Notes: generated by a model from the letters alone, not told the origin. A DNA stretch of 64,000 nt from Eubacteriales bacterium (GCA_051867895.1 JBJDZH010000005.1:103487-167486); one strand, 5' to 3'; shown: positions 1,770-64,000, numbered from the stretch's first letter. Numbers and translations: made by a program.

Positions 1770-2335
1770 GAGAAACGCAAAGGGAAACGCAAAGGGAAAC
1801 GCAAGGGGGGCGCCTTTTGAAAAAGGCGTCCCCCTTGACCCCCCGCGAAAACTTTCGGGCAAAAACAGGGGTATCGTACAGGCTAAGGTGTATGGTACCA
1901 TGGATCAGTATGAAAGTTTCTGAGGGGTACGGGGGACTCTGCTGCGGGGGAGAGGACCATCTCAGACGCCGAAGTTCCTCTCCCCCGCATCCCTCTCTCC
2001 TTGGCTGAGGGAACGGTTTCTCATGCGTCGCTCCATCAAAAACACAAGGAGCGCGAGCGCGAACGTGTTTTTCGGGAGGGGCGTGCAAGGTGAATTCTGA
2101 CGATTCCGGCTGCACGCTGCCGCGCTGCACGGCATCCGGAGCGATAGCGAGCGGATTTCGCTGTGCTTTGACGGGGATTCAGTGTGAAAGTTTAAGGGGG
2201 TGTGGACGACATTGCGCTCCGCGCAAGTCGGCGAGGTTGCGCAAAGCGCAACCTCGCGGGAGTCTTATTCATAAGGTTCCCCCACGGCGTTCCCCCGCAT
2301 CGTTCTCCCGCCCCGCGTCCCCTGCGCCACGTCCA
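1770..2335 (-). repeat. Mosaic intergenic repeat cluster 1: Z-A-B-degenerate P-B', then a reverse-oriented core G/F/E/D/C/B', then Q and Z'
   Basis: Three 12-bp units GGGAAACGCAAA at 1776-1803. Hairpin A at 1802-1837 (caaggggggcgccttttgaaaaaggcgtcccccttg). 45-bp hairpin H1 at 1944-1988. Module D (aacacaaggagcgcgagcgcgaacgtgttttt) at 2040-2072. Module Q double hairpin (gacattgcgctccgcgcaagtc / gcgaggttgcgcaaagcgcaacctcgc) at ~2205-2258. All modules recur elsewhere in the window. Confidence 0.9.
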
Positions 2336-2345
2336 CCCAGTCCCC

Positions 2346-2374
2346 TTGCAAAACGGTGCAAAGGCTGATATAAT
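2346..2374 (+). promoter_or_regulatory. Sigma-A type promoter for the 2407 gene
   Basis: TTGCAA (2346-2351), 17-nt spacer, TATAAT (2369-2374), about 30 nt upstream of the ATG. Confidence 0.5.
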
Positions 2375-2406
2375 GAAAGAAAAAGCGCAAGAAAGGCGGA
2401 TGAGTC

Positions 2407-3117
2407 ATGGAACAGATATACACGATCCCGGTAAACGAAGCGTTTGAGGCGTCGGCGGCGGACGCGTCGCTCGGCTGCCCGTTCTGCCGGCTGTACAATA
2501 AACTGGAGGGAGACGAGCTGGAGCTGATTCTCGGCGCGTCGATGATGGAGCCGGACGTCCGCATCCGGACAAACGAGCTGGGCTTCTGCCGCGATCATTT
2601 CGCCATGATGCTCCGCCGCCCGAAGCGGCTGCCGCTGGCGCTGATTCTGGAGAGCCACCTCGCCGAGCAGAAAAAGAACATCGGCGCGTCCGCCGCATTC
2701 GTGGGACATGCCGGCGAGAACGCCGCAAAAAAATTCACAACGCTCTCCCAATCCTGCTACGTCTGCTCGCGCATCGAGTACAACTTCGTGCGCATGCAGG
2801 AAACTGCCGCGCTCCTGTGGGAGCAGGACCCCGACTTCCGCAAAAAAACGGAGGCTCAGCCGTTTTTCTGCCTGCCGCATTTCGCCGGCCTCGTCTCCGC
2901 CGCCAGAGAACGCATGAGCCGCCGCACCTTCGCCGATTTCTATAAATCCGTCTCCGCGCGCGAGAACGAATACATGGAAAAGCTGAACGCCGACGTGAGT
3001 TGGTTCGTCAAGAAATTCGACTACCGCTACGACGCGGAGCCGTGGGGCGACGCGAAAGACGCCCCCGAACGCGCAATCACTTTCCTCTCCGGCAAGCTCC
3101 ACGAGGAGGAAACGTAA
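2407..3117 (+). CDS. Cysteine-rich conserved hypothetical protein (two CxxC pairs; resembles the DUF6062 family as I recall it)
   Basis: 236-aa ORF with CPFC and CYVC motifs, non-repetitive composition, its own promoter and a strong terminator. The family assignment is from memory, not a search. Confidence 0.6.
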   Translation: MEQIYTIPVNEAFEASAADASLGCPFCRLYNKLEGDELELILGASMMEPDVRIRTNELGFCRDHFAMMLRRPKRLPLALILESHLAEQKKNIGASAAFVGHAGENAAKKFTTLSQSCYVCSRIEYNFVRMQETAALLWEQDPDFRKKTEAQPFFCLPHFAGLVSAARERMSRRTFADFYKSVSARENEYMEKLNADVSWFVKKFDYRYDAEPWGDAKDAPERAITFLSGKLHEEET

Positions 3118-5579: not shown

Positions 5580-5891
5580 TCAGACGCCGAGCATGGCGAG
5601 AACGGCTTCCTTGTCGCGCACGCCGACGCTCTGCGCGGAAACCTTTCCGCCCTTGAAAACGAGCAGCGTCGGAATGCTCATGATGCCGAACTGCTGCGCC
5701 AGCTCCGCCTCGTCGTCCACGTTAACCTTGCCGACCTTCGCCGACGATACCTCCCCGGCGATCTCGTCCACGATGGGCGACATCATGCGGCACGGTCCGC
5801 ACCAGCTCGCCCAGAAATCCACCAGCACCGGCACGGGCGAAGCGAGCACCTCGGACGCGAAATTGTCTTTTGTAAGCGTGATAACAGCCAT
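5580..5891 (-). CDS. trxA: Thioredoxin
   Basis: 103 aa starting MAVITLTKDNF, with the WCGPC active site. GGAGA SD upstream of ATG 5891. The track ORF 5580..6077 over-extends the N-terminus. Confidence 0.93.
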   Translation of the reverse strand: MAVITLTKDNFASEVLASPVPVLVDFWASWCGPCRMMSPIVDEIAGEVSSAKVGKVNVDDEAELAQQFGIMSIPTLLVFKGGKVSAQSVGVRDKEAVLAMLGV

Positions 5892-5998: not shown

Positions 5999-6979
5999 TC
6001 AGAGCGGGCGGACGCTGATCTCTCCGGAGGAAAGCGCAGCACTCGCCCCGTCCGGCGTGCGCACGACCAGGCGGCACTCGCCGTCCACGCCGACCGCCTC
6101 CGCCTCATAGGCGGAAGCGCCGTCCGCCGAGATCACGCGCACGCGCCGCCCGAGCACAAAGCAGCGGCGGCGGTATTCGTCGATATACGTTCCGTCCGCC
6201 AGGGAATCGTACAGCGAAAAGAAATGCGACAGGATGAGAGTGAGCAGCCGCGCGCGCGCGTCAGAGCGGCGCTCGGGCAGAAGCGCCCCCGCGATACCGG
6301 CAAGCTCCGGCGGAAAACCGCCCGCCGGTTCCGTCACGTTCACGCCGATGCCGAGCACGGCGTATTCGAGCTGACCGCTCTCGGGCGTAAAGGCGGCTTC
6401 GGTCAGGATGCCGCAGACCTTCCGTTCGCGGATGTAGACGTCGTTGACCCACTTGATGGACGCCGTGCAGGAAGTAAGCTCCTCCGCGGCGCGGCAGACG
6501 GCGACGGCGGCGGCGGTCGTGATGCGGATCGCCTGTTCCGCGGGGATAGCGGGGCGCAGCACGATGCTGAGATACAGCCCTGTGCCGGGCGGAGAAAGAA
6601 ACGCGCGTCCGCGGCGTCCGCGCCCGGCGGTCTGCATTCCGGCGGCGATGACCGTGCCGTGCGGCGCGCCGGCTGCCGCCGCAGCGCGCGCGTCGTCGTT
6701 GGTAGAGGAAGTCTCCGCCTCGATCCGGATCTGGAGAGAGGACAGTGCAGGAGGAAGATACCGGCGGACGGTCTCCTCTGTCAGCACATCCGAAGTTGGC
6801 AGCAGCGTATATCCGCGGCGCGTCGACGCGTCGATGGCGTAGCCCTCGTCCGTCAGCGAACGGATCGCCTTCCAGACAGCCGCCCGCGTCACGCCGAGCG
6901 CCGCCGCGATCTCCTCGCCGGATATCCATTCGCCGCGCCGCGCTTCCAGCAGCGCCAGCGCTTCGTCTCGTTTCGACAT
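5999..6979 (-). CDS. birA: Bifunctional biotin-[acetyl-CoA-carboxylase] ligase / biotin operon repressor
   Basis: 326 aa from MSKRDEALALLE. N-terminal HTH, GRGRRGR biotin-ligase motif and KWVNDV motif. AGGAGGAAC SD before ATG 6979. Confidence 0.9.
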   Translation of the reverse strand: MSKRDEALALLEARRGEWISGEEIAAALGVTRAAVWKAIRSLTDEGYAIDASTRRGYTLLPTSDVLTEETVRRYLPPALSSLQIRIEAETSSTNDDARAAAAAGAPHGTVIAAGMQTAGRGRRGRAFLSPPGTGLYLSIVLRPAIPAEQAIRITTAAAVAVCRAAEELTSCTASIKWVNDVYIRERKVCGILTEAAFTPESGQLEYAVLGIGVNVTEPAGGFPPELAGIAGALLPERRSDARARLLTLILSHFFSLYDSLADGTYIDEYRRRCFVLGRRVRVISADGASAYEAEAVGVDGECRLVVRTPDGASAALSSGEISVRPL

Positions 6980-7014: not shown

Positions 7015-7560
7015 CGCCGGGGGAAACTTTTTGAAACAAGTTTCCCCCATGCCCCTTTCAAAAACTTTCATACTGAATACACAATACTGTGCAGCGGGAT
7101 TTTCTTCGTGCGGTACTCTGTTTTTGCTCTGAGAGTTTTGGGGGAACATCTCAGTTATGGAGAAAGACTCATTCACCTCGCATTGCGGGGGAGAGGACCA
7201 TCTCAAGCGCCTCGCATTGCGGGGGAAAGGACCATCTCAGACGCCGAAGTTCCTCTCCCCCGCAACCCTCTCTCCTTGGCTTCCGGAGGGAGGGTGCGGC
7301 ATTTCGCTTTCCACATCAAAAAACACAGGGAGCGCGGGCGCGAACGTGTTTTTCGGGATGGGCGGGCAGAGGGAATTCTAACGGTTTCCGCTGCACTCTG
7401 TCGCACCGCACGGCATCCGGAGGGATAGCGGACAGGTTCTACTGCGCTTTGACGGGCATTCAGTTTGAAAGCTCTTGAGGGGGTGCGGGGGAACTTCTTG
7501 CAGAAGTTCCCCTGCATCGTTCTCCCCACGCCCCTTGCCTCCGCATCCCCTGCTGTTTGC
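7015..7560 (-). repeat. Mosaic repeat cluster 2: A-B-degenerate P-B', then a reverse-oriented core with 2 tail units, then A and Z'
   Basis: Hairpin A at ~7019-7049 and 7485-7515. Tail units at 7146-7218. H1 at 7219-7263. Modules E/D/C at 7264-7460. The cluster fills the whole birA-amidohydrolase spacer. Confidence 0.9.
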
Positions 7561-12159: not shown

Positions 12160-12385
12160 GGAACGGAGAACGGGGAACGGAGAACGATGCGGGGGCTTTT
12201 TGAAAAAAGTCCCCGCGCCCCCAAAAACTTTCGGGCAAAAACAGGGATACTGTACGGCGAAATTTTCGCTGTGCGGGACTGTATATCAGTTTGAAAGTTT
12301 TTGAAAGGGGCACGGGAAAACTTTTTTCAAAAAGTTTTCCCCGGCATATCCCTTCCCCCGGCGTCTCCCCGTATCCCCTGTGGGC
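12160..12385. repeat. Mosaic repeat cluster 4 (Z-A-B-degenerate P-B'-A'-Z') between iorA and iorB
   Basis: Z units ggaacggagaacggggaacggagaacg directly after the iorA stop. Hairpin A gggggctttttgaaaaaagtcccc at ~12191-12214. A' gggaaaacttttttcaaaaagttttcccc at ~12314-12342. The repeat lies inside an operon. Confidence 0.85.
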
Positions 12386-15922: not shown

Positions 15923-16142
15923 GCTGCTGCCTGCTGTGTTCGTGATGCGTGAGTAATTAAACCCACAGATAACAAATGGAGCCCGGACTTCTCCTGCCGG
16001 TATGCAGACCTCCCCCGCGCCGCTCCTTTGACCGGCGCGGCGGACGCTGGGAGCACAAAACAGGAGAGAGGGCACCGCCCTTGCGAAAGCAGGGTTTCTA
16101 TCTTCTTGCGCACACGGCACGGCGGGTATTTTTGCCGGTACC

Positions 16143-16174
16143 GGCGCTCGCCTTCGGGCGGGCGCCGTTTTTTT
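16143..16174 (+). terminator. Rho-independent terminator
   Basis: GGCGCTCGCC-ttcg-GGCGGGCGCC followed by gttttttt. Confidence 0.75.
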
Positions 16175-16301
16175 GAGAAAATGCGCCGCGCGGACTTCAC
16201 GACGGAAGCACGGCAGCTTCCCGAACGGACGGGCTGCGCCGCCCTCCCGCACATATTTCAATCACCCGCCCCGGCGGCAAAGTCCGCCTGAAAGGAATCA
16301 T

Positions 16302-18440
16302 ATGTCAAACGAAACATTGCTCAAATGCCGCTTTTCGGACAGCGGCCGCGGATTCGGCTTCGCCTCTCCCCTGGAGGAGGAGGGCGAGGATCTCTTTATC
16401 GCACCAGACAGCACCATGAGCGCCATGACCGGCGACACCGTGCTCGTCCACCGATACCGGCGGGGCGAGGCGGGCTACACGCGCGGCAGCGAGGGTGAAG
16501 TCACCCGGATCCTCGAGCACGGCAATACCGAGATCATTGGCGCCTTTGCCATGCGCGGCGCCGAGGGCGTCGTTGTGCCGGACAACGAAAAGCTCCACGC
16601 CGAGGTCTCCGTGCGCGGCTCCGACATCGGCGCGGCGCATCCCGGCGACAAGGTCGCCGTCCGGATCACCGCCTATCCGCGCCGCCGCCGCGGGGAGGAG
16701 CTGTTCCGTCTGGAGGGCTACGTCACCGCCGTATTCGGGCGCGCCGAAACAAGAGAGGCAAACTACGCCGCCGTCCTCCACCAGAACGGCATTCCCACCG
16801 AATTCTCCGACGACGCCGAGTGGGAGGCGGAAGACGCCGCCGCCCGCCCGCTTCGTGAGGAGGGTCGGCTGGATTTCCGCGATCAGCCGACGCTGACGAT
16901 CGACAGCGCGGACGCGAAGGACCTCGACGACGCCGTCTCCCTTTCCCGCACCGACGGAGGCTGGCTGCTCGGCGTACACATTGCGGACGTCTCCGAATAC
17001 GTCCGCGAGGGAGGCGTGCTCGACCGCGAGGCGTACGAGCGCGGCACCTCCGTCTATTTTGTAGACAAGGTCGTTCCCATGCTGCCGGTAGCGCTCTCCA
17101 ACGGCGCCTGCTCGCTGAACGGCGGCGAAACGCGGTACGCGCTCTCCGCTTTTCTGACCATCGGCGAGGACGGCGTGACGCGCGGCTGCGAATTTAAGAA
17201 AACGCTGATCCGTTCCGACGTGCGCGGCGTATACAGCGAGGTCAACGATCTGTTTGAAAACGGGCGCGCGTCCGCGTTCGCACAGAAATACGACGCCGTA
17301 TACGACATGCTCGCGGATATGCGCGTATTGTACGAAACGCTCCGCCGCGCCGCCGAGGCGCGCGGTCAGCTCAATCTCGAGAGCACTGAGGCGAAGATCC
17401 TGCTGGACGAAAAGGGGCTGCCGGTCGATATCGTTCCGCGCGTGCGCGGTACGGCGGAGCTGATGATCGAGCAGTTCATGCTGGCGGCGAACATCGGCGC
17501 GGCGACATGGCTGCACGCGCGGGGACTCCCGTGCCTGTACCGTGTCCACGAGGATCCCATGCCGGAGAAGATCTCCGCCTTTGCGGTTTTTGCGCACAAC
17601 ATGGGGCTGGATGTCACCGGGATCACCGGCGGCGTATCCTCCGCGCGGCTCGGGCAGCTGCTCGGCGAGGCGGCGGAGAAGGGCGTCGGCGAGGTCGTTT
17701 CCGGCGTTTTGCTGCGCAGTCTTGCCAAAGCGCGCTACAGCGAAAAGCCCGGCTCTCACTACGGGATCGCCGCGCCGCTGTACTGCCACTTCACCTCGCC
17801 GATCCGCCGTTATCCCGATCTGTTCGTCCACCGGGCGATTTCCTCGGCGCTGACCGGGTCACGTCTGCCGTCCCATCCGGCGGAAAGCGCCCGCGTAACC
17901 AGCGACGCAGAGATGCGTGCCGTGACCGCCGAGCGGCAGATTGAGGATATCTACATGGCGCAATACTGCTCCTTCCACATCGGCGAGGAATATGACGCGT
18001 CGGTTTCGTCCGTCTGCTCCTTCGGCGTTTTCGCGAAAACGGACAAGCTCTTTGAGGGGCTTGTGCCGATCGAGGCGCTGTTCGGCGCATGGGTTCGTCC
18101 GGAATACAATGCCGAGCGCATGACGCTTACCGGTGGGGGGCAGACTTACCGTCTCGGTGACAGGCTCCGCATCCGCATTGAGCGCGCGGACGTCGCCAGC
18201 GGGCAGATCGATTTTGCGCTCGCCTCCGCGCCTGTTTCCGCTGCGCCTTCGCAGAAGCAGCCGGCAGGCGGATACCGCATCCGTCCGTCAGAGAGGCATG
18301 CATCCGGGCGCCGGGCGGATAACCGGCGCACGGGCGGACACGGCGGAACGGACAGGAAAAGCCGTCCGGCAGACAGCAGGGATGGCGCCCGCCGCACAGG
18401 CGGACGCCGCACGGCGGGAAAAAGGAACCGTCGCGGATGA
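16302..18440 (+). CDS. rnr: Ribonuclease R
   Basis: 712 aa from MSNETLLKCRFSDSGRGFGFA (cold-shock/OB). RNB domain (TIDSADAKDLDDAVS, HYGIAAPLYCHFTSPIRRYPDL), S1 domain and an Arg/Gly-rich tail. The track start at 16173 is upstream of the SD AAAGGA. Confidence 0.92.
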   Translation: MSNETLLKCRFSDSGRGFGFASPLEEEGEDLFIAPDSTMSAMTGDTVLVHRYRRGEAGYTRGSEGEVTRILEHGNTEIIGAFAMRGAEGVVVPDNEKLHAEVSVRGSDIGAAHPGDKVAVRITAYPRRRRGEELFRLEGYVTAVFGRAETREANYAAVLHQNGIPTEFSDDAEWEAEDAAARPLREEGRLDFRDQPTLTIDSADAKDLDDAVSLSRTDGGWLLGVHIADVSEYVREGGVLDREAYERGTSVYFVDKVVPMLPVALSNGACSLNGGETRYALSAFLTIGEDGVTRGCEFKKTLIRSDVRGVYSEVNDLFENGRASAFAQKYDAVYDMLADMRVLYETLRRAAEARGQLNLESTEAKILLDEKGLPVDIVPRVRGTAELMIEQFMLAANIGAATWLHARGLPCLYRVHEDPMPEKISAFAVFAHNMGLDVTGITGGVSSARLGQLLGEAAEKGVGEVVSGVLLRSLAKARYSEKPGSHYGIAAPLYCHFTSPIRRYPDLFVHRAISSALTGSRLPSHPAESARVTSDAEMRAVTAERQIEDIYMAQYCSFHIGEEYDASVSSVCSFGVFAKTDKLFEGLVPIEALFGAWVRPEYNAERMTLTGGGQTYRLGDRLRIRIERADVASGQIDFALASAPVSAAPSQKQPAGGYRIRPSERHASGRRADNRRTGGHGGTDRKSRPADSRDGARRTGGRRTAGKRNRRG

Positions 18441-18444: not shown

Positions 18445-19230
18445 CGGGGAAAGTGCAGGGGAAGGCAGAGAACGGAACGCAAGGGGGCTTTTTGAAAAAA
18501 GCCCCCTTGACCCCCCAAAAAACTTTCATACTGAATCCCCGCCAAGGCACAGCGAAGCCAACTCGCCACCTCTCCGGTTTCCGTGCAGCGCGCCGGAGTA
18601 CAGCGGAATCTGTCAGACCTAACCCTCCCCGCCCCTCCCAAAAAACACGTTCGCGCACGCGCTCACTGTGTTTTTGGATTCCGCGCTCCTTGTATTTTTG
18701 ATAAGGAGCGCACCACTCCCCTCAGCCAAGGAGAGTGGGGGGCGGGGGAGAGGAACTTCGGCGTTTGAGATGGTCCTCTCCCCCGCAGCACGAGGCGTTT
18801 GAGATGAGACGCGAACACGGGCACGCCGCAGGAAAACGCGCAAGAAAACGCAAGGGGGCTTTTTGAAAAAAGCCCCCTTGACCCCCAAAAACTTTCATAC
18901 TGAATCCCCATCTAAGCACAGCGAAGCCAACTCGCCTCCTCTCCGGTTTCCGTGCAGCGCGCCGGAGTACAGCGGAATCCGTCAGACCTAACCCTGTACG
19001 CCTCTCCCGAAAAACACGTTCGCGCACGCGCTCCTTGTATTTTTGATAAGGAGCCCCCATCTCCCCTCAGCCAAGGAGCGCGGAGTGCAAGGGAGAGGAA
19101 CTTCGGCGTTTGAGATGGTCCTCTCCCCCGCATACGAAGCGTTTGAAATTGTCTTCTCCCCCTCAATACATGAATGAGATTTCCCCGCGGCCAAATCATT
19201 TGAGCGGAACTTTCTTCAAAAGTTTTCCTT
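18445..19230 (+). repeat. Mosaic repeat cluster 5: two tandem full-length cores (Z-A-B-C-D-E-F-G x2) plus a terminal A-type hairpin
   Basis: Hairpin A at 18480-18509 and ~18848-18877. H1 at 18742-18786 and 19087-19131. The two copies are collinear over ~360 bp each. A-like gcggaactttcttcaaaagttttcc at 19203-19228. Confidence 0.92.
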
Positions 19231-19264
19231 GGCGCATCCCATTATATAATGTGAGGTACAGTGT

Positions 19265-19888
19265 ATGATTTCCGAATCTCTGTATGAACGCTACCCGGCA
19301 CTCGTCACGTGCCGCGCGTCGATTGATGCGGCGGAGCGCCTGCTCTGCGGCGCATTCCGCGCGGGCGGCAAGCTGCTGATCTGTGGAAATGGCGGGAGCG
19401 CCGCGGACGCCGGTCACATTGCCGGCGAGCTGATGAAATCCTTTCTGCTGCCGCGCCCGCTCGGCGAAGAGGAGAGAGGCGCGCTGTCCCACTTCGGCGG
19501 CGACGGCGAATACCTCGCCGCTGCATTGCAGGGCGGTCTCCCCGTCGTTTCGCTCGCGGCGCATTCCGCGCTTATGACCGCTGTCGCCAACGATACCGCC
19601 GCGGACGCGATCTTCGCACAGCAGACATGGGCGCTCGGGCGTCCGGGCGACGCGCTGCTTGCGATCTCCACCTCCGGCAGCAGCAGAAACTGCGTTCTCG
19701 CCGCGATTGCCGCCAGGGCGCGCGGCATGTCCGTTTTGGCGCTGACCGGCGAGGGATGCGGCAGGCTTGCCGATCTTGCGGACGTCACCGTTGCGGTTCC
19801 CGCCCGCGAGACGTTCCGGGTGCAGGAATACCATCTGCCCGTTTATCACGCGCTCTGCGCCGCCGTCGAGGCGGATTTCTTCACCTGA
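19265..19888 (+). CDS. gmhA: SIS-domain phosphoheptose isomerase-like protein
   Basis: 207 aa. LLICGNGGSAADAGHIAGEL and ISTSGSSRNCV motifs of GmhA/DiaA-type SIS proteins. Confidence 0.75.
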   Translation: MISESLYERYPALVTCRASIDAAERLLCGAFRAGGKLLICGNGGSAADAGHIAGELMKSFLLPRPLGEEERGALSHFGGDGEYLAAALQGGLPVVSLAAHSALMTAVANDTAADAIFAQQTWALGRPGDALLAISTSGSSRNCVLAAIAARARGMSVLALTGEGCGRLADLADVTVAVPARETFRVQEYHLPVYHALCAAVEADFFT

Positions 19889-19890
19889 GC

Positions 19891-20691
19891 TCAGCCGCTC
19901 GGCGCGGTGCGCTGTCGGCGCGCGTATTCCGCCGGCGTACATCCGCACGCGCGCCGGAACACGGCGATGAAGTAGCCCGCGTCCGAGAAGCCGCACTCTG
20001 CTGCCGTATTCGACACGCTTTCCCCCTGCCGCAGAAGCTGTTTCGCCTGATTGACGCGAACCTCGCTCAGAAAGCTGTGTACCGTCATCTGCGTGTACGC
20101 CTGAAAATCCCGGTTCAGCTTGTTCCGGTTTACCAGAAAGCGCCGCGCAAGCTCCGGTGTCGTCAGCGGCAGCGCACAGTTTTCACTGATATACCGCACG
20201 ACCTGCTGGATGTAATTTGGTTCCCCGCGCACAACGGCGCGCCCGGCGTCGCCCGCATAGCGGCACAACACGCACAGAATGAGCGAAAGCAGCAGTCTCC
20301 GCTCCGGCGCGTATCCGTTTTCCGGCGCAAGCCGCAGAAAATACGGCAGGATATACTGCGCTTCCTCTCCGCTCAGCGGCAAAATCCAGAAATCGGCGCC
20401 GGGGAGCGGCTCCTGCGCCGCCGCTTCGTCAAAATACAGCACATACCGCTCATACGGAAGCCCGGTGACGACGTTTGCCGCATGCATGGCGTAGGACGGC
20501 TCGAACACCACGCACGGGCCGTGTACCTCCGTTTCCGCGCCGTCGCGGCGCAGCTGCATGACCGTATCGCTCACGATAAACAGAAGCTCGCAGTGCGGAT
20601 GCAGATGCATATAATCCATTCTGCGCGGCGTCTCGTCCGATGTGTAGGACAAAACGATATCCCCTGTTTTCATGCAGTAGGTTGTCTTCAT
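19891..20691 (-). CDS. AraC-family transcriptional regulator
   Basis: 266 aa. Cupin-like N-terminal half and a C-terminal AraC HTH (AAECGFSDAGYFIAVFRRACGCTPAEYAR). Confidence 0.85.
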   Translation of the reverse strand: MKTTYCMKTGDIVLSYTSDETPRRMDYMHLHPHCELLFIVSDTVMQLRRDGAETEVHGPCVVFEPSYAMHAANVVTGLPYERYVLYFDEAAAQEPLPGADFWILPLSGEEAQYILPYFLRLAPENGYAPERRLLLSLILCVLCRYAGDAGRAVVRGEPNYIQQVVRYISENCALPLTTPELARRFLVNRNKLNRDFQAYTQMTVHSFLSEVRVNQAKQLLRQGESVSNTAAECGFSDAGYFIAVFRRACGCTPAEYARRQRTAPSG

Positions 20692-20844
20692 TTCTTCGCC
20701 CTCTTTCGTGCCGGTTTTCCGATTATCTTTGGCGCATTAGTGTGTTTTTTGACCGCTTTTGTGCCTTTTTTTCCATTATATCGAATTCTGACGCGTTTGT
20801 CAAGGACAAACATGGGGGAGTGGATGCAGGGGATGCGATACAGG

Positions 20845-21412
20845 GAAGGCGCGATACGGGGAACGGAACACAAGGGGGCTTTTTGAAAAAAGCCCCCTTT
20901 ACCCCCAAAAACTTTCATACGAAATACCCATCTAAGCACAGCGGAACCCACTCGCTACTCCTCCGGATACCGGAAAGCGCGCCAGAGTGCAGCGAAAATC
21001 GTCAGATCTCACTCCGCCCGCCCCGCTCGAAAAACACGTTCGCGCACGCGCTCCTTGTGTTTTTGATAAGGAGCGCCCCCATCTCCCCCCAGCCAAGGAG
21101 AGAGGGGTGCGGGGGAGATGAACTTCGGCGTATGAGATGGTCCTCTCCCCCGCATACGAGGCGTTCGTGATGAGACGCAGCGGCAAAAAAGCGCCACGAA
21201 GAGAACGCGCAGGGGATCCTTTTTCAAAAGGCTCCCCAAACCCCCGCAAAAACTTTCATACTGAAAAGCAGGGATATCGTATAGCTCAGCCAGTACGATA
21301 TCCCTGCTTTTGTCCGATAGTTTTTGAAGGGGGACTGTGCGACATTGCGCTCCGCGCAAGTCAGCGAGTTGTGCAAAGCGCAGCATGCGGAACTTTTGTC
21401 AAGAAGTTCTCC
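20845..21412 (+). repeat. Mosaic repeat cluster 6: forward core, then Z-A-B-P-B'-Q-A; overlaps the 3' end of the ROK gene
   Basis: Hairpin A at ~20872-20900. H1 at 21109-21153. P hairpin at 21264-21311. Q at ~21330-21380. The terminal A-type hairpin gcggaacttttgtcaagaagttctcccc (21387-21414) contains the ROK stop codon. Confidence 0.9.
21264..21311. terminator. P-module hairpin, a bidirectional intrinsic-terminator-like element
   Basis: aaaa-GCAGGGATATCGTA-tagctcagccag-TACGATATCCCTGC-tttt. Confidence 0.65.
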
Positions 21413-30948: not shown

Positions 30949-30984
30949 TCGTGTCGCGGGGAAAACCCATAGTCAGGTGAGTCA

Positions 30985-31380: not shown

Positions 31381-31382
31381 CT

Positions 31383-32941: not shown

Positions 32942-33007
32942 GTCGGAAGCAGGGGAATTATATATAAAGAAGATGGAATCAATTTGGATAAATTGACGGC
33001 TTCTGCT

Positions 33008-35775: not shown

Positions 35776-35785
35776 AGGACGAGCT

Positions 35786-43699: not shown

Positions 43700-44350
43700 G
43701 AAAAACTTTTTGTTTGAAGGGGAAGGGATGCTGGGGGAACTTTTTGCATAAAGTTTCCCCCAGTCCCCTTCCTAAAACTTTTGAGGGAAAAAAGGGATAT
43801 CGTACAGGCTGAGCTATACGATATCCCTGTTTTAGTATAAAAGTTTCTGGGGGTGCAGGGGACTCTTTTCAAAGAGTCCCCTGCGCGTTTTTTCCCGCGT
43901 TCCCTGCGCTTGCGTGGCATCTTACCCGCCAGAGGCGTGCGGGGAGAAAACATCTCATCCACCTCGTGTTGCGGGGGAGAGGACCATCTCAAACGCAGGA
44001 GGATTGCGGGGGAGAGGACCATCTCAGACGCCGAAGTTCCTCTCCCCCGCACCCCTCTCTCCTTGGCTGGGGAGGTGGGGACGCTCTTTATCAAAAAAAC
44101 AAGGAGCGCGGCATACAAAACACAGTGAGCGCGTGCGCGAACGTGTTTTTCGGGAGAGACGGACAGGGTGAGGTCTGACGGATTCCGCTGCACTCCGGCG
44201 CGCTGTACGGCATCCGGAGGGATAGAGAACAGATTCCGCTTGTGCTTATACGGGGATTCAGGTTGAAAGTTTTTGGGGGTCAAGGGGGCTTTTTTCAAAA
44301 AGCCCCCTTGTGTTCTCCCCCCGTCTCCCCTGCATCTGCGTTTCCGCGTG
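43700..44350 (-). repeat. Mosaic repeat cluster 11: B-A-B-P-B'-A, then a reverse-oriented full core with 2 tail units
   Basis: Hairpin A at ~43733-43761, 43855-43884 and ~44281-44310. P at 43788-43833. Tail units at 43938-44005. H1 at 44006-44050. Confidence 0.92.
43788..43833. terminator. P-module hairpin, terminator-like
   Basis: aaaaaa-GGGATATCGTA-caggctgagcta-TACGATATCCC-tgtttt. Confidence 0.65.
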
Positions 44351-46072: not shown

Positions 46073-46885
46073 ATGGGAGCAGATATCCGACGGCAGGACA
46101 TCCACGACGACCGGGACGTATGGGTCCACCGGAAAACAACGGCAGGAATGCAGATGCCGACGCACTGGCATACGCATTTTGAGATCCTGCTCGTGTATGA
46201 AGGTGACTGCCGGATCGCGGCGGGAGGGCGGGAATACAATCTGCGGGAGCCTTTTGTCGTTCTGTACCGCCCGTTTACGCCGCACGGTATGACGGTGTCG
46301 GGTACGTATACGCGGAGTATGGTAAATTTCGGCGCGCGGCAGAGGGCGTTGTTCTCCGAGAGGCTGTTTTCTCTTTCATTTTTGGATCGCGCGCCGCTTT
46401 TTCTTGTGCGCATACCGCCAAGCCGGCTTCCGGAGCTGGAAAAGCTGTTCTCCGCTCTGTTCGCCAACCGCGATGATTTCGCGTGCAGCCAGCTCTATCT
46501 GGCGCTGATCGTGAACTGGCTGCGGCTGGAGGAGGGAGACGCGGACGTTTTCACGGAAGCGGAGCCGTATGTGGAGACGGCGCTGCGCTATATGGGGGAA
46601 AATCTGTCGCAGCCGCTGGCGCTGGAGGAAGTGGCGCGGCACTTCGGCGTCGGACGGACAAAGCTGAACCGGGATCTGCGCGAGGCGGTCGGCATGACGT
46701 TCCGACCGTATCTGACAGAGCTGCGGCTGACGCGCGCAAGAGAAATGCTGCTCGACGGCTTCTCTGTGACCCGCACAGCCTTTGAGTGCGGATATTCCGG
46801 CGAATCCCATTTTATCTGCGCTTTCCACCGCCGCTGGGGCGTTACGCCCGGTGCAATGAAAAAACAGGGATATCGTACAGGCTGA
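46073..46885 (+). CDS. AraC-family transcriptional regulator
   Basis: 270 aa from MGADIRRQD (GAGGAGG SD). Cupin-like N-terminal half and C-terminal AraC HTH (FECGYSGESHFICAFHRRWGVTPG). The last 8 codons and the stop lie in the P hairpin. Confidence 0.85.
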   Translation: MGADIRRQDIHDDRDVWVHRKTTAGMQMPTHWHTHFEILLVYEGDCRIAAGGREYNLREPFVVLYRPFTPHGMTVSGTYTRSMVNFGARQRALFSERLFSLSFLDRAPLFLVRIPPSRLPELEKLFSALFANRDDFACSQLYLALIVNWLRLEEGDADVFTEAEPYVETALRYMGENLSQPLALEEVARHFGVGRTKLNRDLREAVGMTFRPYLTELRLTRAREMLLDGFSVTRTAFECGYSGESHFICAFHRRWGVTPGAMKKQGYRTG

Positions 46886-46907
46886 GCTATACGATATCCC
46901 TGTTTTT
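46859..46907. terminator. P-module hairpin, a bidirectional intrinsic terminator shared by convergent genes
   Basis: aaaaaa-CAGGGATATCGTA-caggctgagcta-TACGATATCCCTG-ttttt. The AraC stop TGA (46883-46885) lies in the loop. Confidence 0.75.
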
Positions 46908-47495
46908 GTATAAAAGATACTGGGGGTGGGGGGACTCTTGAAAAGAGTTCTCTGCACGTTTTCCCCGCGTTCCCTGTGCTTGCGCGGCATCTTACCCGCC
47001 AGAGGCGTGCGGGGAGAAAATATATCATCCACCGGAGGAATGAGGAAAGAAATCTCATTTTCCGGACTGTGGAGGAAAAACATATCAAACGCCTCGTGAT
47101 GCAGGGGAGAGGACCATCTCAAACGCAGAGGATTGCGGGGGAGAGGACCATCTCAGACGCCGAAGTTCCTCTCCCCCGCACCCCACTCTCCTTGGCTCTC
47201 GGGGAGATGGGGTGCGTTCCGAATCCAAAAACACAGTGATCGCGTGCGCGAACGTGTTTTTCGGGAGGGCTGGCAGGGTGAATCCTAACAGATTCGGCTG
47301 CACTCTGCCGCGCTGCACGGCATCCGGAGGGATAGCGGGCAGATTCCGCTGTGCTTATACGGGGATTCAGTATGAAAGTTTTTGGGGGTCAAGGGGGGCT
47401 TTTTTCAAAAAGCCCCCTTGCGTTCTCCTGCGCTTTTTCCTGCGTCGTTCTCCCCTGCATTGCGTTCTCCCCCGCATCCTTCTCCCCCGCGCCTG
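46908..47495 (-). repeat. Mosaic repeat cluster 12: B'-A, tail units, then a reverse-oriented full core
   Basis: A-type hairpin at ~46928-46950. Tail units at ~47020-47134. H1 at 47135-47179. Hairpin A ggggggcttttttcaaaaagccccc at ~47393-47417. Z' runs to ~47495. Confidence 0.9.
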
Positions 47496-49764: not shown

Positions 49765-50565
49765 GCGGTGGGAATATGCAAGGGGGTGCAGAAGTTCCCC
49801 TGCATCTGCGTTTTCCCCCGTAGCGTTCCCTGTGTCGCGCACCTTACGTTCACGTGTCATCACAAACGCCTCGTGTTGCGGGGGAGAGGACCATCTCAAA
49901 CGCCGAAGTTCCTCTCCCCCGCAGCCCTCTCTCCTTGGCTGAGGGTGAGGTGGCATTTCGCTTTCCTCCATCAAAAAACACAAGGAGCGCGTGCGCGAAC
50001 GTGTTTTTCGGGATGGGCGGGCAGAGTGAGGTCTGACGGTTTCAGCTGCACTCTGCCTCGCTGCACGGTATCCGGAGGGATGGCGAACAGGTTTCGCTGT
50101 GCTTTGACGGGGACTTAGTCCGAAAGTTTAAGGGGGGCGTGGGGGATTTTTTCAAAAATCCCCCACGTCGTTCTATCTTGCGTCCCCCCACGACGTCCCC
50201 CGCGTCCGCGCCTCGTGTTGCGGGGGAGAGGACCATCTCAAACGCCGAAGTTCCTCTCCCCCGCAGCCCTCTCTCCTTGGCTGGCGGGGATGGGGGCGTT
50301 TGCGTCCATAATTACAAAATGCAGCGAGTGCGGCATCAAAAAACACAAGGAGCGCGGGCGCGAACGTGTTTTTGGGGATGGGCGGGCAGAGTGAGGTCTG
50401 ACGGTTTCCGCTGCACTCTGCCTCGCTGCACGGTATTCGGAGGGATGGCGAACGAATTTCGCTGTGCTTTGACGGGGACTTAGTCCGAAAGTTTAAGGGG
50501 GCGTGGGGGATTTTTTCAAAAATCCCCCGCGTCGTTCTCTTGCGTCCGTTCTCCTGCATCCGCGT
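49765..50565 (-). repeat. Mosaic repeat cluster 13: two tandem reverse-oriented full cores filling the nifS-rlmH spacer
   Basis: H1 at 49878-49922 and 50220-50264. Hairpin A gggggattttttcaaaaatccccc at 50141-50164 and 50505-50528. The copies are near-identical, with a ~22-bp indel in module E. An A-type hairpin lies at ~49785-49810. Confidence 0.92.
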
Positions 50566-50570
50566 CCCCC

Positions 50571-51746
50571 TTATCGTTTGGCAAGTCTCCGGGCGCCGTC
50601 GGCGATGGCGGCGGCAAGGACGGCTGCTTCCGCCGTCGTGTTGGCGGGTCCGATGCTCACGCGGATCGTCTCGTCCGCTTCGCGCTCGCTCAGACCGAAC
50701 GCCAGCATCGCGCGGCTCACCGAATGCGCGCGCGCCGAGCACGCCGAGCCGGCCGAAACACAGATCCCCTGCGAGGACAGGTGATTCAGCATCACCTCGC
50801 TCCGCACGCCCGGAATCCGCAGACTCACAATGTTCGCAATCCCCGCCGCCGGTACGTTCACGCATACCTCCGGTGCCAGATCGCGAAGCCCGTCCAGCAG
50901 CGCTGCCCGCACCGCACCGGCAGCCGCCGCATTCACGTCCAGATTCTCCGCCGCCAGCCGCGCGGCTTCTCCGAATCCTGCGATCCCCGGTACATTCTCC
51001 GTACCGGAGCGCATGCCGCCCTCCTGTCCGCCGCCCGGCAGCGTCGGAATCAGCCGCCGCGCGCGCAGCAGCGCCGCGGAAACGTACAGCGCCCCGATCC
51101 CCTTCGGACCGCCGATCTTGTGTCCGCTCACCGTCACCATGTCCGCTCCGAGCTGAAGCGGCGTGAAGCGCACCTTCCCAAACGCCTGTACCGCATCCGT
51201 ATGCGTGACGGCGTCCGGCGACTGCGCCCGGATCAGCGAAAATGCGCGCCGCACGTCGTAGAGCGCCCCGCTTTCGTTGTTCACCAGCATCATCGTCGCC
51301 AGGATCACCCCTGCCGCGTTCGCCGCGACATAGTCCAGATCCAAAGCTCCGCCCCGCGTCGGAACGCGGCAGACCGTGAAGCCGTCCGCCTCCAGCCGGC
51401 GCAGCGCCTGCTCCACCGCCGGATGCTCACTGTCCGTCGAGAGAATCTTCCCGCGCGTTCCATCCTTCTCCGGGCGGCGCTTCGCGTACACCGATCCGAC
51501 AATCGCCAGATTGTCCGCTTCCGTGCCGCAGGAGGTGAAAATCAGACGTCCCTCCGCCTCGCGCCGGACGCCAAGCGCACGCGCAACGCGGCGGCGTCCC
51601 TCCTCGCACAGCGCGCGCGCACCAATGCCTGCCCCGTGTACCGACGACGGATTTGCCCATTCGTTTCGCAAGGCGCGCTCCATCTCGTCAACAACGGACG
51701 GCAGCGGCGCCGTTGTCGCCGAATTGTCAAAATAGATCCAGCTCAT
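50571..51746 (-). CDS. nifS: Cysteine desulfurase (NifS/IscS class V aminotransferase)
   Basis: 391 aa. YFDNSATT, the PLP-lysine motif SGHKIGGPKGIGALY, and the active-site Cys region SAGSACS. Confidence 0.9.
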   Translation of the reverse strand: MSWIYFDNSATTAPLPSVVDEMERALRNEWANPSSVHGAGIGARALCEEGRRRVARALGVRREAEGRLIFTSCGTEADNLAIVGSVYAKRRPEKDGTRGKILSTDSEHPAVEQALRRLEADGFTVCRVPTRGGALDLDYVAANAAGVILATMMLVNNESGALYDVRRAFSLIRAQSPDAVTHTDAVQAFGKVRFTPLQLGADMVTVSGHKIGGPKGIGALYVSAALLRARRLIPTLPGGGQEGGMRSGTENVPGIAGFGEAARLAAENLDVNAAAAGAVRAALLDGLRDLAPEVCVNVPAAGIANIVSLRIPGVRSEVMLNHLSSQGICVSAGSACSARAHSVSRAMLAFGLSEREADETIRVSIGPANTTAEAAVLAAAIADGARRLAKR

Positions 51747-60399: not shown

Positions 60400-60865
60400 A
60401 CGGGGGACGGATACAAAGGGACGGATACAAAGGGCGGGGAACGCCGTGGGGGAACCTTTTGAATAAGACTCCCGCGAGGTTGCGCTTTGCGCAACCTCGC
60501 CGACTTGCGCGGAGCGCAATGTCGCCCACACCCCCTTAAACTTTCGGACTTTGACACGGTCTAAGCATAGTTAACTCTGACCGCTATCTCTCCGGATTCC
60601 GTGCAGCGCGGCAGAGTGCAGCCGGAATCGTCAGAATTCACTCTGCCCGCCCCGCCCGAAAAACACGTTCGCGCACGCGCTCCTTGTGTTTTTGATGGAG
60701 AACGCAAAACGTCATGCTTCTTCTTTCCCTCAGCCAAGGAGAGAGGGATGCGGGGGAGAGGAACTTCGGCGTCTGAGATGGTCCTCCCCCCCGCAATCGT
60801 GAGGCGGATGAGATGCTCCCCACACCCCCGCGCCACGAGACGGGTGAGACCCCCGCGATAAGGGT
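60400..60865 (+). repeat. Mosaic repeat cluster 14: Z-A-Q-B, then a forward core
   Basis: 14-bp units gggacggatacaaag x2 at 60404-60432. A-type hairpin at ~60447-60475. Q (gcgaggttgcgctttgcgcaacctcgc, then cgacttgcgcggagcgcaatgtcg) at ~60474-60523. H1 at 60750-60794. Tail to ~60865. Confidence 0.9.
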
Positions 60866-61822: not shown

Positions 61823-61870
61823 AAAGGGTTTCTCCATCCCCCTTTCAAAAACGTTTGAAATCGGGGAAAG
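61806..61870. repeat. Solo A-B repeat module overlapping the PHP gene's 3' end
   Basis: ggggaaaaacttttgaaaagggtttctcc, followed by the palindrome tttcaaaaacgtttgaaa. Confidence 0.75.
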
Positions 61871-61938
61871 CCGGCTGCGTCCGGCGCGCAGGAAAACACA
61901 GAGAAAAATTATAATTACATAAAAGGAGCACTCCCATT

Positions 61939-63402
61939 ATGAAAAAAGCTGACATCGGTCTGATCGGTCTTGCGGTCATGGGCGAGAACCTCGTTCTCAA
62001 CATGGAGTCCAAGGGCTTCACCGTTGCGGTATTCAACCGCACCACGGAAAAGGTGACGAATTTCGTCTCCGGCCGCGGCGCAGGCAAAAACATTATCGGA
62101 ACGTACTCGCTTGCGGAACTGGTCGAAGCGGTGGAGAAGCCGCGCAAGATCATGATGATGATTAAGGCGGGCGACGCGGTCGACGCCATGATCGACGCGC
62201 TGCTGCCGCTGCTGGACGACGGCGATATCCTGATCGACGGCGGCAACTCGCATTTCCCGGACACCGCGCGCCGCACGGCGTATGTGGAATCGAAGGGCAA
62301 ACTGTACATCGGTACCGGCGTATCCGGCGGCGAGGAGGGCGCTCTGAACGGTCCGTCCCTGATGCCCGGCGGTTCGCCCGCCGCATGGCCGCATGTGAAG
62401 AATATTCTCCAGTCCATCTGTGCGAAGGTGGAGGACGGTTCGCCCTGCTGCGACTGGGTCGGTGAGAACGGCGCGGGGCATTTTGTGAAGATGGTACACA
62501 ACGGCATCGAGTACGGCGATATGCAGCTGATCTGCGAGGCGTACCATCTGATGAAGAATCTGCTGGGAATGTCGGACGACGAGATGCACGAGGTATTCGC
62601 CGAGTGGATGAAGGGGGATCTGAACAGCTATCTGGTAGAGATCACGCGGGACATTCTGGCGTACAAGGACACGGACGGCGAGCCGATCGTGGAGAAGATT
62701 CTGGACACGGCGGGGCAGAAGGGCACCGGCAAATGGACGGGTATTGCGGCGCTGGACGAGGGCGTGCCGCTGACGCTGATCGGCGAAGCGGTGTTCGCGC
62801 GCTGCCTGTCGGCGATGAAGGAGGAGCGCGTTGCGGCGTCGAAGGTGCTGCCGGGCGAAGCGGAGGCTGCTCCCGCGCTGACGGCGGAGGAGAAGGCAGA
62901 ATGGATCGAGAACATCCGCTGCGCGCTGCTGGCGTCGAAGATCGTTTCCTACGCGCAGGGCTACACGCTGATGCGTGCGGCTGCGAAGACCTACGGCTGG
63001 AATCTGAACTACGGCGGCATTGCGCTGATGTGGCGCGGCGGCTGCATCATCCGTTCCGTATTCCTGGGCAAGATCAAGGACGCTTTCGACAAGAATCCCG
63101 AGCTGACCAACCTGCTTCTCGATCCGTATTTCACCGAGAAGATCGCGTCTCTTCTGCCCGGATGGCGGAAGGTCGTAGCACAGGCGGCGCTGTCCGGCAT
63201 GCCTGTTCCCGCGTTCTCCTCGGCGCTGTCGTACTATGACGGCTATCGCTGCGAGCGGCTCCCCGCGAATCTGCTGCAGGCGCAGCGCGACTATTTCGGC
63301 GCGCACACCTATGAGAGAGTGGACGCCGAGCGCGGCAAGTTCTTCCACACGAACTGGACGGGACACGGCGGAGACACGGCGGCAAGCCAGTACATAGTCT
63401 GA
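61939..63402 (+). CDS. gnd: 6-phosphogluconate dehydrogenase, decarboxylating (NADP+)
   Basis: 487 aa. IGLIGLAVMGENLVLN Rossmann motif. Conserved GAGHFVKMVHNGIEYGDMQLI and YFGAHTYER. Confidence 0.95.
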   Translation: MKKADIGLIGLAVMGENLVLNMESKGFTVAVFNRTTEKVTNFVSGRGAGKNIIGTYSLAELVEAVEKPRKIMMMIKAGDAVDAMIDALLPLLDDGDILIDGGNSHFPDTARRTAYVESKGKLYIGTGVSGGEEGALNGPSLMPGGSPAAWPHVKNILQSICAKVEDGSPCCDWVGENGAGHFVKMVHNGIEYGDMQLICEAYHLMKNLLGMSDDEMHEVFAEWMKGDLNSYLVEITRDILAYKDTDGEPIVEKILDTAGQKGTGKWTGIAALDEGVPLTLIGEAVFARCLSAMKEERVAASKVLPGEAEAAPALTAEEKAEWIENIRCALLASKIVSYAQGYTLMRAAAKTYGWNLNYGGIALMWRGGCIIRSVFLGKIKDAFDKNPELTNLLLDPYFTEKIASLLPGWRKVVAQAALSGMPVPAFSSALSYYDGYRCERLPANLLQAQRDYFGAHTYERVDAERGKFFHTNWTGHGGDTAASQYIV

Positions 63403-64000
63403 AAAAGACGCGGACGCAGGGGGTGAGCGCGCAGGGGAACGATGTGGGGAAGCCTTTTGAAAAAGGCTCCCCCACGCCCCCCGCGAAAACTTTCAACCTG
63501 AATTCCCGCCAAAGCACAGCAAAACCTGCTTGCCATTCCTCCGGATGCCGTGCAGCGCGGCAGAGTGGAGCGAAAATCGTTAGAATTCACTCTGCCCGCT
63601 CCACCCGAAAAACACGTTCGCGCACGCGCTCCTTGTGTTTTTTGAAGGAGGAAAGCGAAGCACCGTGTCCCTTTTCCCCTCGAAGCCAAGGAGAGAGGGG
63701 TGCGGGGGAGAGGAACTTCGGCGTCTGAGATGGTCCTCTCCCCCGCAACGCGAGGCGGACGAGATGAAGACACGGACGCAGGGTGAGCGCGCAGGGGGAA
63801 CGATGTGGAGAAGCCTTTTTCAAAAGGCTCCTGCGAGGTTGCGCTAAGCGCAACCTCGCCGACTTGCGCGGAGCGCAATGTCGCCCACACCCCCTTAAAC
63901 TTTCGGACTTGAATCTCCGCCAAAGCACAGCAAAACCTGCTTGCCATTCCTCCGGATGCCGTAAAGCGGACCGAAGTGCAGCCACACCACCCCCGGTCTC
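63403..64000 (+). repeat. Mosaic repeat cluster 15: a full forward core, then the start of a second copy (Z-A-Q-B-C...) running off the window
   Basis: Hairpin A at 63444-63475. H1 at 63702-63746. Second A at ~63811-63840 and Q at ~63832-63885. Confidence 0.9.

Follow-up and report, generated by a model that had tools for sequence, protein, structure and literature searches.

Repeats with the potential to form a triplex within a single DNA strand are known from E. coli and other Proteobacteria as the TMECO, BoxC and PIT elements (Hoyne et al. 2000; Holder et al. 2015, PMC4666352), and the formation and relevance of intrastrand DNA triplexes in bacteria are an unsettled question. These are the closest known elements to the one described here, a 63-nt module built around a 45-nt hairpin (H1), which is repeated 17 times in a 64-kb stretch of DNA (the window) covering the region of the replication origin in the genome (61% G+C) of an uncultured member of the Clostridia. 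Like TMECO, BoxC and PIT, the module is made of three blocks that succeed each other on one strand, a reverse-Hoogsteen tract, a purine arm and a pyrimidine arm, with G-run and GAG motifs; it is G/C-rich, multi-copy, strictly intergenic and very uniform within a genome, is sometimes present as inverted pairs, and is unlinked to known transposons, phages and plasmids, its loci being rearranged between strains. In TMECO, however, the pyrimidine arm comes first and is followed by the purine arm and the Hoogsteen tract (class II); its blocks measure 9 nt and its loops 3-6 and 3 nt, whereas the module would be of class I, having 10-16 triads and, between the arms, a constant loop of 19 nt, which lies beyond the ITxF limit of 1-6 nt. 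The module differs also in its conserved AGCCAA 5' flank, in its Clostridia hosts, in being embedded in larger units that are mosaic or resemble miniature inverted-repeat transposable elements (MITEs), and in a three-way covariation across lineages. Since the TMECO consensus, CCCTCNCCC N3-6 GGGNGAGGG N3 GGGNGAGGG, has no match in the window and the topology is of class I, the module is not a member of the TMECO/BoxC group and shares with it only the kind of fold.

The REP, BIME and REPIN elements are also short GC-rich imperfect palindromes, present in many intergenic copies as singlets, inverted doublets and mosaic clusters, with a conserved 5' flank beside the hairpin, and they are thought to be read as single-stranded hairpins. 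The module differs from them in lacking GTAG, its flank being AGCCAAGGAG followed by a purine tract, and in the size of its hairpin, which has at least 45 nt with a 19-nt loop compared with the 20-40 nt of a REP palindrome. Moreover, it is the loop and not the stem that is constant between species, a putative third-strand tract is present, and no Y1/RAYT gene was found in the ~1.1 Mb sampled. MITEs and the modular repeats Correia/NEMIS, RUP, ERIC and pneumococcal BOX resemble the elements that carry the module in being non-coding, shorter than 500 bp and intergenic, with terminal inverted repeats in some lineages, and in breaking short-read assemblies; the variable number of a middle unit (here a 34-nt half-unit) recalls boxB of the pneumococcal BOX. 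The module nevertheless has no sequence similarity to Correia/NEMIS, RUP, ERIC or BOX, and the window units have no terminal inverted repeats; it differs from MITEs in that no target-site duplication or parent insertion sequence was found for it and in that the conserved part is an internal structured module common to otherwise unrelated elements.

As judged from the sequences compared, the module is the one part common to a superfamily of non-coding, multi-copy, intergenic repeats of uncultured gut and rumen Clostridia. The explanation favoured here, which is about as likely as not, is that it constitutes the conserved single-stranded DNA head of a mobile or amplifying repeat family and is read by a putative protein. 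The module would act as DNA while its strand is single-stranded, during replication, repair or recombination or in a transposition intermediate. The arms would pair into the hairpin, and the upstream tract would fold back antiparallel to the purine arm and fill the major groove (G*G-C, A*A-T and T*A-T), with a class I intrastrand triplex of the purine motif as the result. A trans-acting protein responsible for copying, moving or maintaining the element would recognise the constant loop, and perhaps AGCCAA with it, in a sequence-specific manner, while the units would multiply locally by tandem duplication and slippage around the structure. Action at the DNA level, a protein partner and transposition of the element are presumed in this explanation. 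A stricter form of it, according to which the module is a naturally selected intramolecular DNA triplex capped by the constant loop and is what a putative single-strand-DNA mobilisation or maintenance system of gut Clostridia recognises, is possible but doubtful.

Every copy of H1 in the window is intergenic and 45 nt long, with a 13-bp stem and a 19-nt loop, and departs from the consensus at 0-3 positions. Apart from the intergenic position, this is what the initial annotation of the window had described, and the same 17 coordinates and orientations were obtained again. The number is far above chance: the 13-nt arm GCGGGGGAGAGGA has 37 matches in the two strands of the window with at most one mismatch, compared with 0.24 expected, and the 19-nt loop has 19 matches compared with 0.05 expected, corresponding to the 17 H1 and two half-units. 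Position 24 of H1, in the loop, is C in 10 copies, T in six and A in one. Because AGCCAAGGAG is found exactly, 18 nt upstream of H1, in 17 of 17 copies (0.11 occurrences are expected in the window), the conserved unit is of 63 nt and not of 45. The modules are the following:

1944-2006, minus strand: 63-nt module (AGCCAAGGAG, purine tract and H1 hairpin)
7219-7281, minus strand: 63-nt module, with one C>T in the 3' arm giving a G-T pair
18724-18786, plus strand: 63-nt module, first of a tandem pair, with T for A in the upstream tract (GAGAGTGGGG)
19069-19131, plus strand: 63-nt module, second of the tandem pair and the most decayed copy (5' arm GCAAGGG, tract GAGCGCGGAG)
21091-21153, plus strand: 63-nt module, the sole copy antisense to co-directional flanking genes
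31050-31112, minus strand: 63-nt module in a unit that separates the DnaA-box cluster from the 3' end of dnaA, at a site that is empty in the relative L146
33296-33358, plus strand: 63-nt module between the 5' end of dnaA and rpmH
37527-37589, plus strand: 63-nt module in a truncated unit that starts just upstream of AGCCAAGGAG, directly after jag
37872-37934, plus strand: 63-nt module in the full unit next after the truncated one behind jag
39978-40040, plus strand: 63-nt module in a truncated unit that starts at AGCCAAGGAG, just past the secG terminator
40331-40393, plus strand: 63-nt module followed by a 43-bp tandem array (40389-40491)
44006-44068, minus strand: 63-nt module
47135-47197, minus strand: 63-nt module, with T for A in the upstream tract
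49878-49940, minus strand: 63-nt module, in a tandem pair
50220-50282, minus strand: 63-nt module, in a tandem pair
60732-60794, plus strand: 63-nt module, with one T>C in the 3' arm
63684-63746, plus strand: 63-nt module, the copy taken for fold predictions

The annotation had claimed that H1 is nearly invariant while its flanks drift, and had proposed a per-column comparison of the two. This was carried out on a MAFFT alignment of the 17 oriented copies, and H1 was indeed better conserved than the rest of the element:

H1: 98.0% consensus match, 37 of 45 columns invariant
18 nt upstream of H1: 95.1% consensus match, 13 of 18 columns invariant
Core of ~270 nt, from the palindrome P1 to AGCC: 81.9% consensus match, 74 of 227 columns invariant
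25 columns downstream of H1: 73.1% consensus match, 1 of 23 columns invariant

H1 is not, however, the sole invariant part, as the 18-nt 5' extension and an island, AAAAACACGTTCGCGC, are conserved as well; these two features, and the mosaic system common to many lineages that is described below, were missing from the first account. The island is identical in each of the 15 full units, where it precedes the module by ~60-100 nt, and is always accompanied by H1; it was absent from the other lineages sampled, being specific to that of the window. Mean pairwise identity is 96.7% in H1 (range 91-100) and 76.5% in the core (range 68-90). Since the cores differ by ~23%, the window copies are old, and the possibility that they are merely recent duplicates, which had been named as the finding that would remove the need for selection, fails. 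An internal control for the constancy of H1 is provided by a decayed direct repeat of its 31-nt loop half and 3' arm, which follows downstream with a period of 34 nt and has no pairing partner; on average 50% of it is preserved.

A constant module in diverging surroundings could also be the product of concerted evolution or of a recent sweep, either through gene conversion, which was the other possibility raised in the annotation, or because a young H1 mini-element was inserted into older, diverged repeats, with no function needed. Hairpins and repeats are substrates for conversion and slippage, tandem neighbours share the T or C allele at loop position 24, and two units consist of little beyond the module (37527-37608 and 39978-40059). 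But since tandem neighbours are each other's nearest relatives in the core too, with 90% identity, the shared allele reflects duplication, and since every AAAAACACGTTCGCGC island is accompanied by H1 there are no empty targets for a young insertion. Conversion would not end sharply at the foot of the hairpin on one side and exactly 18 nt out on the other. Moreover, the module is kept between species with unrelated flanks, and it has undergone there compensatory substitutions in two or three interacting segments, so that gene conversion is not the whole explanation; concerted evolution or a sweep is, as a general account, very improbable.

A search for the 45-mer in related genomes had likewise been suggested, and it was made in two ways: by an exact-pattern scan for the inner 33-mer in one genome per species (GTDB representatives) and by a metagenome scan anchored on the H1 loop, which produced 110 stretches, most of the loci being from one species. 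The 33-mer is present in three other species, represented by CP091718.1, a closed 1.78-Mb Oscillospiraceae metagenome-assembled genome (MAG) with ~37 matches, by a Hadza 'Eubacteriales' MAG and by a sheep-omasum Clostridia MAG. With the metagenome stretches, the lineages of uncultured gut and rumen Clostridia found to carry the module, other than that of the window, number at least 10. What they have in common is confined to AGCCAAGGAG, the purine tract and the hairpin, and the surroundings are lineage-specific repeats unrelated to those of the window. The window does not match any of the 110 stretches, its coding DNA being ~82% identical to the nearest one and its best GyrB match 91%. Searches of plasmids, phages and viral contigs gave no real matches, and the literature search retrieved no paper with these sequences and none on such a motif in Clostridia.

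Comparison of the lineages shows that the stem varies in sequence while its pairing is kept. When 19 lineage types are aligned without gaps, changes on both sides are seen in 16 of 17 stem pairs, and 88.9% of the stem cells are paired, compared with 72.7% in shuffled alignments (0 of 500 reached the observed value) and with ~60% for a slid partner. This comparison argues very strongly for the hairpin as a selected structure. In a nearest-neighbour prediction for the 67-mer as single-stranded DNA the hairpin forms with -20.5 kcal/mol (z = -4.3) and the upstream tract is left unpaired. The constancy of the loop is partly by construction, because the loop served as the search key; among the copies anchored on AGCCAAGGAG it is almost always present at two or fewer mismatches, with a few subfamilies carrying GACGTTTGAG or insertions. 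The loop is constant also in copies that had not been retrieved with it: the second modules of palindromic elements, described below, and a second subfamily of the Hadza MAG, neither of which was recognised by its stem, have different closing pairs and still keep the loop. Pairing of AGCCAA with the loop segment CTT(C)GGC, which is plausible in its geometry, was considered and rejected, as AGCCAAGG persists where that half of the loop is replaced; because both sides are invariant, such pairing shows no covariation.

The layout of the module is 5'-AGCCAA, a purine/T tract (GGAGAGAGGGG), 3-4 nt, the purine arm (GGGGGAGAGGA), the 19-nt constant loop (ACTTCGGCGTYTGAGATGG) and the pyrimidine arm (TCCTCTCCCCC)-3'. 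When the tract that follows AGCCAA is read 3' to 5', it repeats the 5' arm read 5' to 3', that is, the two are mirror images. Representative pairs are these:

CP091718: tract 3' to 5' GGGGGAGAGGAA, 5' arm GGGGGAGAGGAA
L016: tract 3' to 5' GGGAGGAGAG, 5' arm GGGAGGAGAG
Hadza MAG type b: tract 3' to 5' GGAGGGTGAA, 5' arm GGAGGGAGAA
L083: tract 3' to 5' GGGGTTGAG, 5' arm GGGGAAGAG
L056 left: tract 3' to 5' GGGGAGGGGAGGTAG, 5' arm GGGGAGGGGAGGAAG
L056 right: tract 3' to 5' GGGGTAGGGGGTGTGA, 5' arm GGGGAAGGGGGAGAGA
L068 right: tract 3' to 5' GGGATAGGGGG, 5' arm GGGAAAGGGGG

Mirror runs extend over 6-16 positions in 17 lineage types (9-16 in all except L018_deg and L025_7740) and are complete in CP091718 (12/12), L056 left (15/15) and L056 right (16/16). 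The tract follows its own arm: the matched sum is 296, compared with 227 +/- 10 when tracts and arms are permuted, and 0 of 100,000 permutations reach it (p<1e-5). The preference is unchanged under identity-only scoring, in which the commonest mismatch is T opposite A (12 cases), and it holds within clades, with p = 7e-5 in the short-linker group (11 types) and with the true pairing as the best of 24 permutations in the long-linker group (4 types). A control in direct orientation was much weaker than the mirror. The aligned pairs of tract and arm are G/G in 131 cases, A/A in 44, T/A in 17 and others in 3, so that 192 of 195 obey the triplex code; an A of the arm faces A or T in the tract, and almost never G or C.

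A mirror repeat is not producible by duplication and is meaningless to a protein that reads B-form DNA, while it corresponds to the requirement of a putative antiparallel purine-motif third strand. The order reverse-Hoogsteen tract, purine arm, pyrimidine arm is that of a class I intrastrand triplex (PMC4666352). It is rather likely, from this three-way covariation, that the upstream tract interacts with the hairpin as a third strand. The linker between tract and arm is of 3-4 nt in the short-linker lineages and of 35-40 nt in the L056 type, while the arm-arm loop is of 19 nt everywhere; the short loops by which intrastrand triplex repeats are recognised (1-6 nt in ITxF, 0-10 nt in Hoyne et al.) are thus not those of the module. 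Two other roles for the tract were rejected. As an alternative Watson-Crick partner of the 3' arm it would need to be a direct repeat, and it is a mirror, with a weak direct control; as part of a G-quadruplex it would find four G-runs only in the long-linker lineages, the window having two. If the stricter form of the explanation given above is true, the covariation would be the first comparative (evolutionary) evidence of an intrastrand triplex used in living bacteria. The co-change of three segments of one strand under a purine-motif code is the kind of evidence that established RNA secondary structures. The defined 63-mer, with its natural compensatory variants, is moreover directly testable.

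The same structure might act as RNA. H1 would then be a stable hairpin of 3' untranslated or intergenic regions, serving as an exonuclease block, a processing site or a site for an RNA-binding protein, and the repeats would have spread by means of a cis element. REP and BOX elements are known to act on mRNA, and the stem covariation suits RNA as well as DNA. The RNA hairpin has a predicted energy of -33.5 kcal/mol, and in seven of the eight window spacers between co-directional genes H1 lies in the sense of transcription, often just past the stop codon, with one copy in the opposite orientation. The orientation in CP091718 is, in contrast, four in the sense of transcription and eight opposite, with 11 of 29 copies between divergent genes (as assigned by a crude gene caller), and three of 13 regions in the window also lie between divergent genes. 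Further, the mirror tract obeys a purine-motif code, with T opposite A, and this motif is not formed in RNA (PMC4666352); the z value of the RNA fold is only -2.7, and H1 has no Rfam match. The annotation had seen in the loop a hyperstable C(UUCG)G tetraloop: CTTCGG is indeed there, but in the predicted RNA fold UUCGG is paired with CUGAG, which closes a loop of 3 nt and leaves the tetraloop unpredicted. It had been right in stating that no U-tract follows and that H1 is not an intrinsic terminator, as the 3' side is AAYACGAGG with no T-run, the loop has 19 nt, and the terminator scan does not flag H1. A role as RNA is accordingly considered unlikely.

Of the three forms of recognition site proposed in the annotation (DNA cruciform, single-stranded DNA hairpin and RNA element), the single-stranded hairpin fits best the mirror tract, the purine motif excluded from RNA and the orientation in CP091718; that a structure is under selection, as proposed, was supported. 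Other candidates were rejected. In the window, the lagging-strand template carries 10 copies and the leading-strand template seven, which is not a significant replication-strand bias. TTGACC follows P1 in some copies only, so a promoter was discarded, and a small open reading frame (ORF) starting at GTG or ATG after the AAGGAG of the module, or in the K block, has starts that are not conserved between lineages or copies. At the gathering threshold Rfam 15 matched only the 6S RNA in the window, and at an E-value threshold the element gave noise-level miRNA matches.

The sites occupied by the module in related species are not orthologous. In 47 kb of orthologous origin region, canonical H1 is missing from three relatives whose GyrB is 84-91% identical, and the dnaN-dnaA spacer that is filled in the window (~30990-31376) is empty in one of them, L146. 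Conversely, L146 has an H1 variant (6290-6400) between pfkB and gyrA, where the window spacer is of 56 bp; this variant is extended by 47 nt, inserted at the variable loop site, and lacks AGCCAAGG. Between species, a filled spacer may thus have a short ortholog, and this is seen in both directions, with flanks too diverged for the junctions to be placed. Strains similar to CP091718 differ mainly in the copy number of tandem units, and the search among them for a clean insertion polymorphism produced only tandem copy-number changes; the single copy of L016 was discarded as an ortholog of a window copy, as synteny stops short of it. Orientation, site differences and tandem amplification are in keeping with an element at the DNA level that reaches new sites and is amplified in place.

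H1 variants in which 20-70 nt are inserted between GCGT and TGAG, at the variable loop position or close to it, are seen in L146, L083 (~5760-5890, minus strand) and L033. CP091718 contains its own mosaic of other hairpin modules in tandem arrays (L006 3180-4100 and L007 5500-6180; ATGCAAGGGGCGAAGCCCCTTGCAT, and CCCCCTTCCCGCCGGGAAGGGGG followed by GGGATGGGGG), and their copy number varies between strains.

In L056, L098, L107, L134 and L068 two modules are inverted, face-to-face, within a palindromic MITE-like element of ~400 bp that has long (~60-bp) terminal inverted repeats ending near TTCAAATTTGGATTTATC. The same outer repeats elsewhere enclose elements with a P1-like palindrome in place of the module. 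Because the module and P1 recur separately across lineages, the window unit looks like a mosaic of modules each of which is older than the unit. The elements could then be ordinary MITEs, mobilised by a DDE transposase acting on double-stranded terminal inverted repeats, with H1 and AGCCAAGGAG as subterminal binding sequences or as passengers and with hairpin and triplex as incidental features; the position of the module inside these repeats, their exchangeable inner part and the different sites in related species would all suit such a mechanism. However, it is the pairing of the stem that is kept and not its sequence, the tract mirrors the arm in a manner that a B-form reader could not use, terminal inverted repeats are missing from the window units, a transposase gene is found neither next to them nor elsewhere in the window, and no target-site duplication is definable. 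Mobilisation as an ordinary MITE is for these reasons improbable. As to a REP-like mechanism, no RAYT or IS200 partner was found: a phmmer search with an IS200 TnpA (an approximate query) gave no match among 8011 ORFs from the window and 144 loci (~1.1 Mb), and the genes between inverted H1 pairs are ordinary.

Several observations weigh against the single-stranded DNA head as favoured here. The 7:1 bias of the window copies towards the sense of transcription would be explained as well by an RNA role. No transposase, target-site duplication, precise junction or clean pair of filled and empty sites was found in the window, in the sampled loci or in the strain comparisons. The formation of the triplex is itself deduced from comparison, and the TMECO triplex, which is stable in vitro, was seen neither in double-stranded DNA nor by in vivo footprinting (Holder et al. 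2015, PMC4666352). The mirror of the window lineage needs a one-base bulge to give 12 triads over 13 positions, a right-end subfamily of L098 and L134 carries in its arm a non-purine insert with no mirror counterpart in the tract, and the tract is missing in a few copies (the L146 variant and one copy of L033). The loop is not wholly constant, even apart from the effect of the search, as variants exist (GACGTTTGAG and insertions at the variable site), and the lineage types compared are not fully independent.

The single-stranded DNA head would predict a protein partner that reads the constant 19-nt loop. The repeat family is also a likely source of strain-level rearrangement, and it breaks the short-read assemblies of abundant uncultured gut Clostridia. 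The only public contig of the same strain as the window, L145 (Logan SRR30616840), is identical to positions 19103-20895 and only 1.8 kb long, one of its ends lying within the H1 loop and the other within P1; the short-read assemblies of this organism are broken up by these repeats.

In the window the module belongs to a unit of ~300-390 bp in which H1 is near the end. The order is GGAACGC short repeats, the P1 palindrome, a core of ~200 nt, the island AAAAACACGTTCGCGC, AGCCAAGGAGAGAGGGnt followed by H1, and the decayed partial repeat of the 3' half of H1; no terminal inverted repeats were found on the window units. The units, islands and half-units are:

18847-19149, plus strand: full mosaic unit, representative
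1940-2203, 7159-7535, 31011-31376, 43952-44349, 47104-47456, 49807-50203 and 50209-50576, minus strand: other full units
18476-18805, 20856-21165, 33018-33389, 37638-37969, 40075-40413, 60528-60827 and 63405-63795, plus strand: other full units
19010-19025, plus strand: AAAAACACGTTCGCGC island, representative
2057-2072, 7338-7353, 18641-18656, 21030-21045, 31166-31181, 33219-33234 and 37797-37812: other AAAAACACGTTCGCGC islands
40259-40274, 44135-44150, 47246-47261, 49993-50008, 50358-50373, 60659-60674 and 63608-63623: further AAAAACACGTTCGCGC islands
7185-7218, minus strand: half-unit of 34 nt, in which the 3' half of the loop is directly repeated together with the 3' arm and 7 nt
43971-44005, minus strand: half-unit, with 28 of 31 nt preserved
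47101-47134, minus strand: half-unit, within the 34-bp tandem array 47081-47163
37935-37968, plus strand: half-unit, with 24 of 31 nt preserved

The island falls within a possible hairpin with an A/T stem of 8 bp (AAAAACAC/GTGTTTTT) and a loop of 19 nt, GTTCGCGCnCGCGCTCCTT. Tandem arrays with a period of 34 or 43 nt begin at GGCG in the H1 loop and take in the 3' arm (40389-40491, 47081-47163, 7185-7263 and 43971-44050), and they look like products of slippage around the hairpin. Ahead of P1 most units have short tandem repeats of GGAACGC / GAAACGCAAAGG, of 7, 12 or 14 nt (1755-1808, 12160-12186, 18827-18851 and 50529-50562), and some GGAACGC/P1 pieces are found with no H1, such as the two P1-type pieces at 12165-12371.

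P1 itself (GGGGGCTTTTTGAAAAAAGCCCCC, with covarying versions such as GGGGAACTTCTGCAAGAAGTTCCCC) is followed by N3-4 and CCCCC and then by AAACTTTCA. Examples in the window are:

18478-18520: P1 palindrome
18849-18890: P1 palindrome
37640-37690: P1 palindrome
40105-40140: P1 palindrome
47385-47420: P1 palindrome

It is also found across lineages beside the same terminal repeats as H1 (L056 11095-11150, L098 2600-2650, L062 and L115). On its opposite strand, GGGGG-N3-4-GGGGG...CCCCC could form a short class I triplex of 5 triads. A third repeated hairpin, CAGGGATATCGTAYAG...CTRTACGATATCCCTG followed by a T-run, is present at 21269-21306, 40646-40683, 43792-43829 and 46865-46902, with a partial copy at 1866-1881, and looks like a terminator copied into several spacers.

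The genes of the window include gyrA, gyrB, dnaN, dnaA, rpmH, rnpA, yidD, yidC, jag, secG, and those of an RNase R-type (RNB-domain) exoribonuclease and of PFOR; transposase or recombinase genes are absent among them. Between dnaN and dnaA (30600-30960) there are clustered DnaA boxes (TTATCCACA, TTTTCCACAG and similar), and H1 mosaic units flank dnaA on both sides (30990-33400), inside the oriC region; in L146, the closest relative, the DnaA boxes are present with no mosaic unit there. A jag/KhpB-like gene (35522-37501) contains an in-frame 45/132-bp tandem repeat at 36055-36348 (6.6 copies, 73-82% matches). The 6S RNA (Rfam RF00013, 54.7 bits) is located at 15925-16132, just upstream of the exoribonuclease gene (16173-18440).

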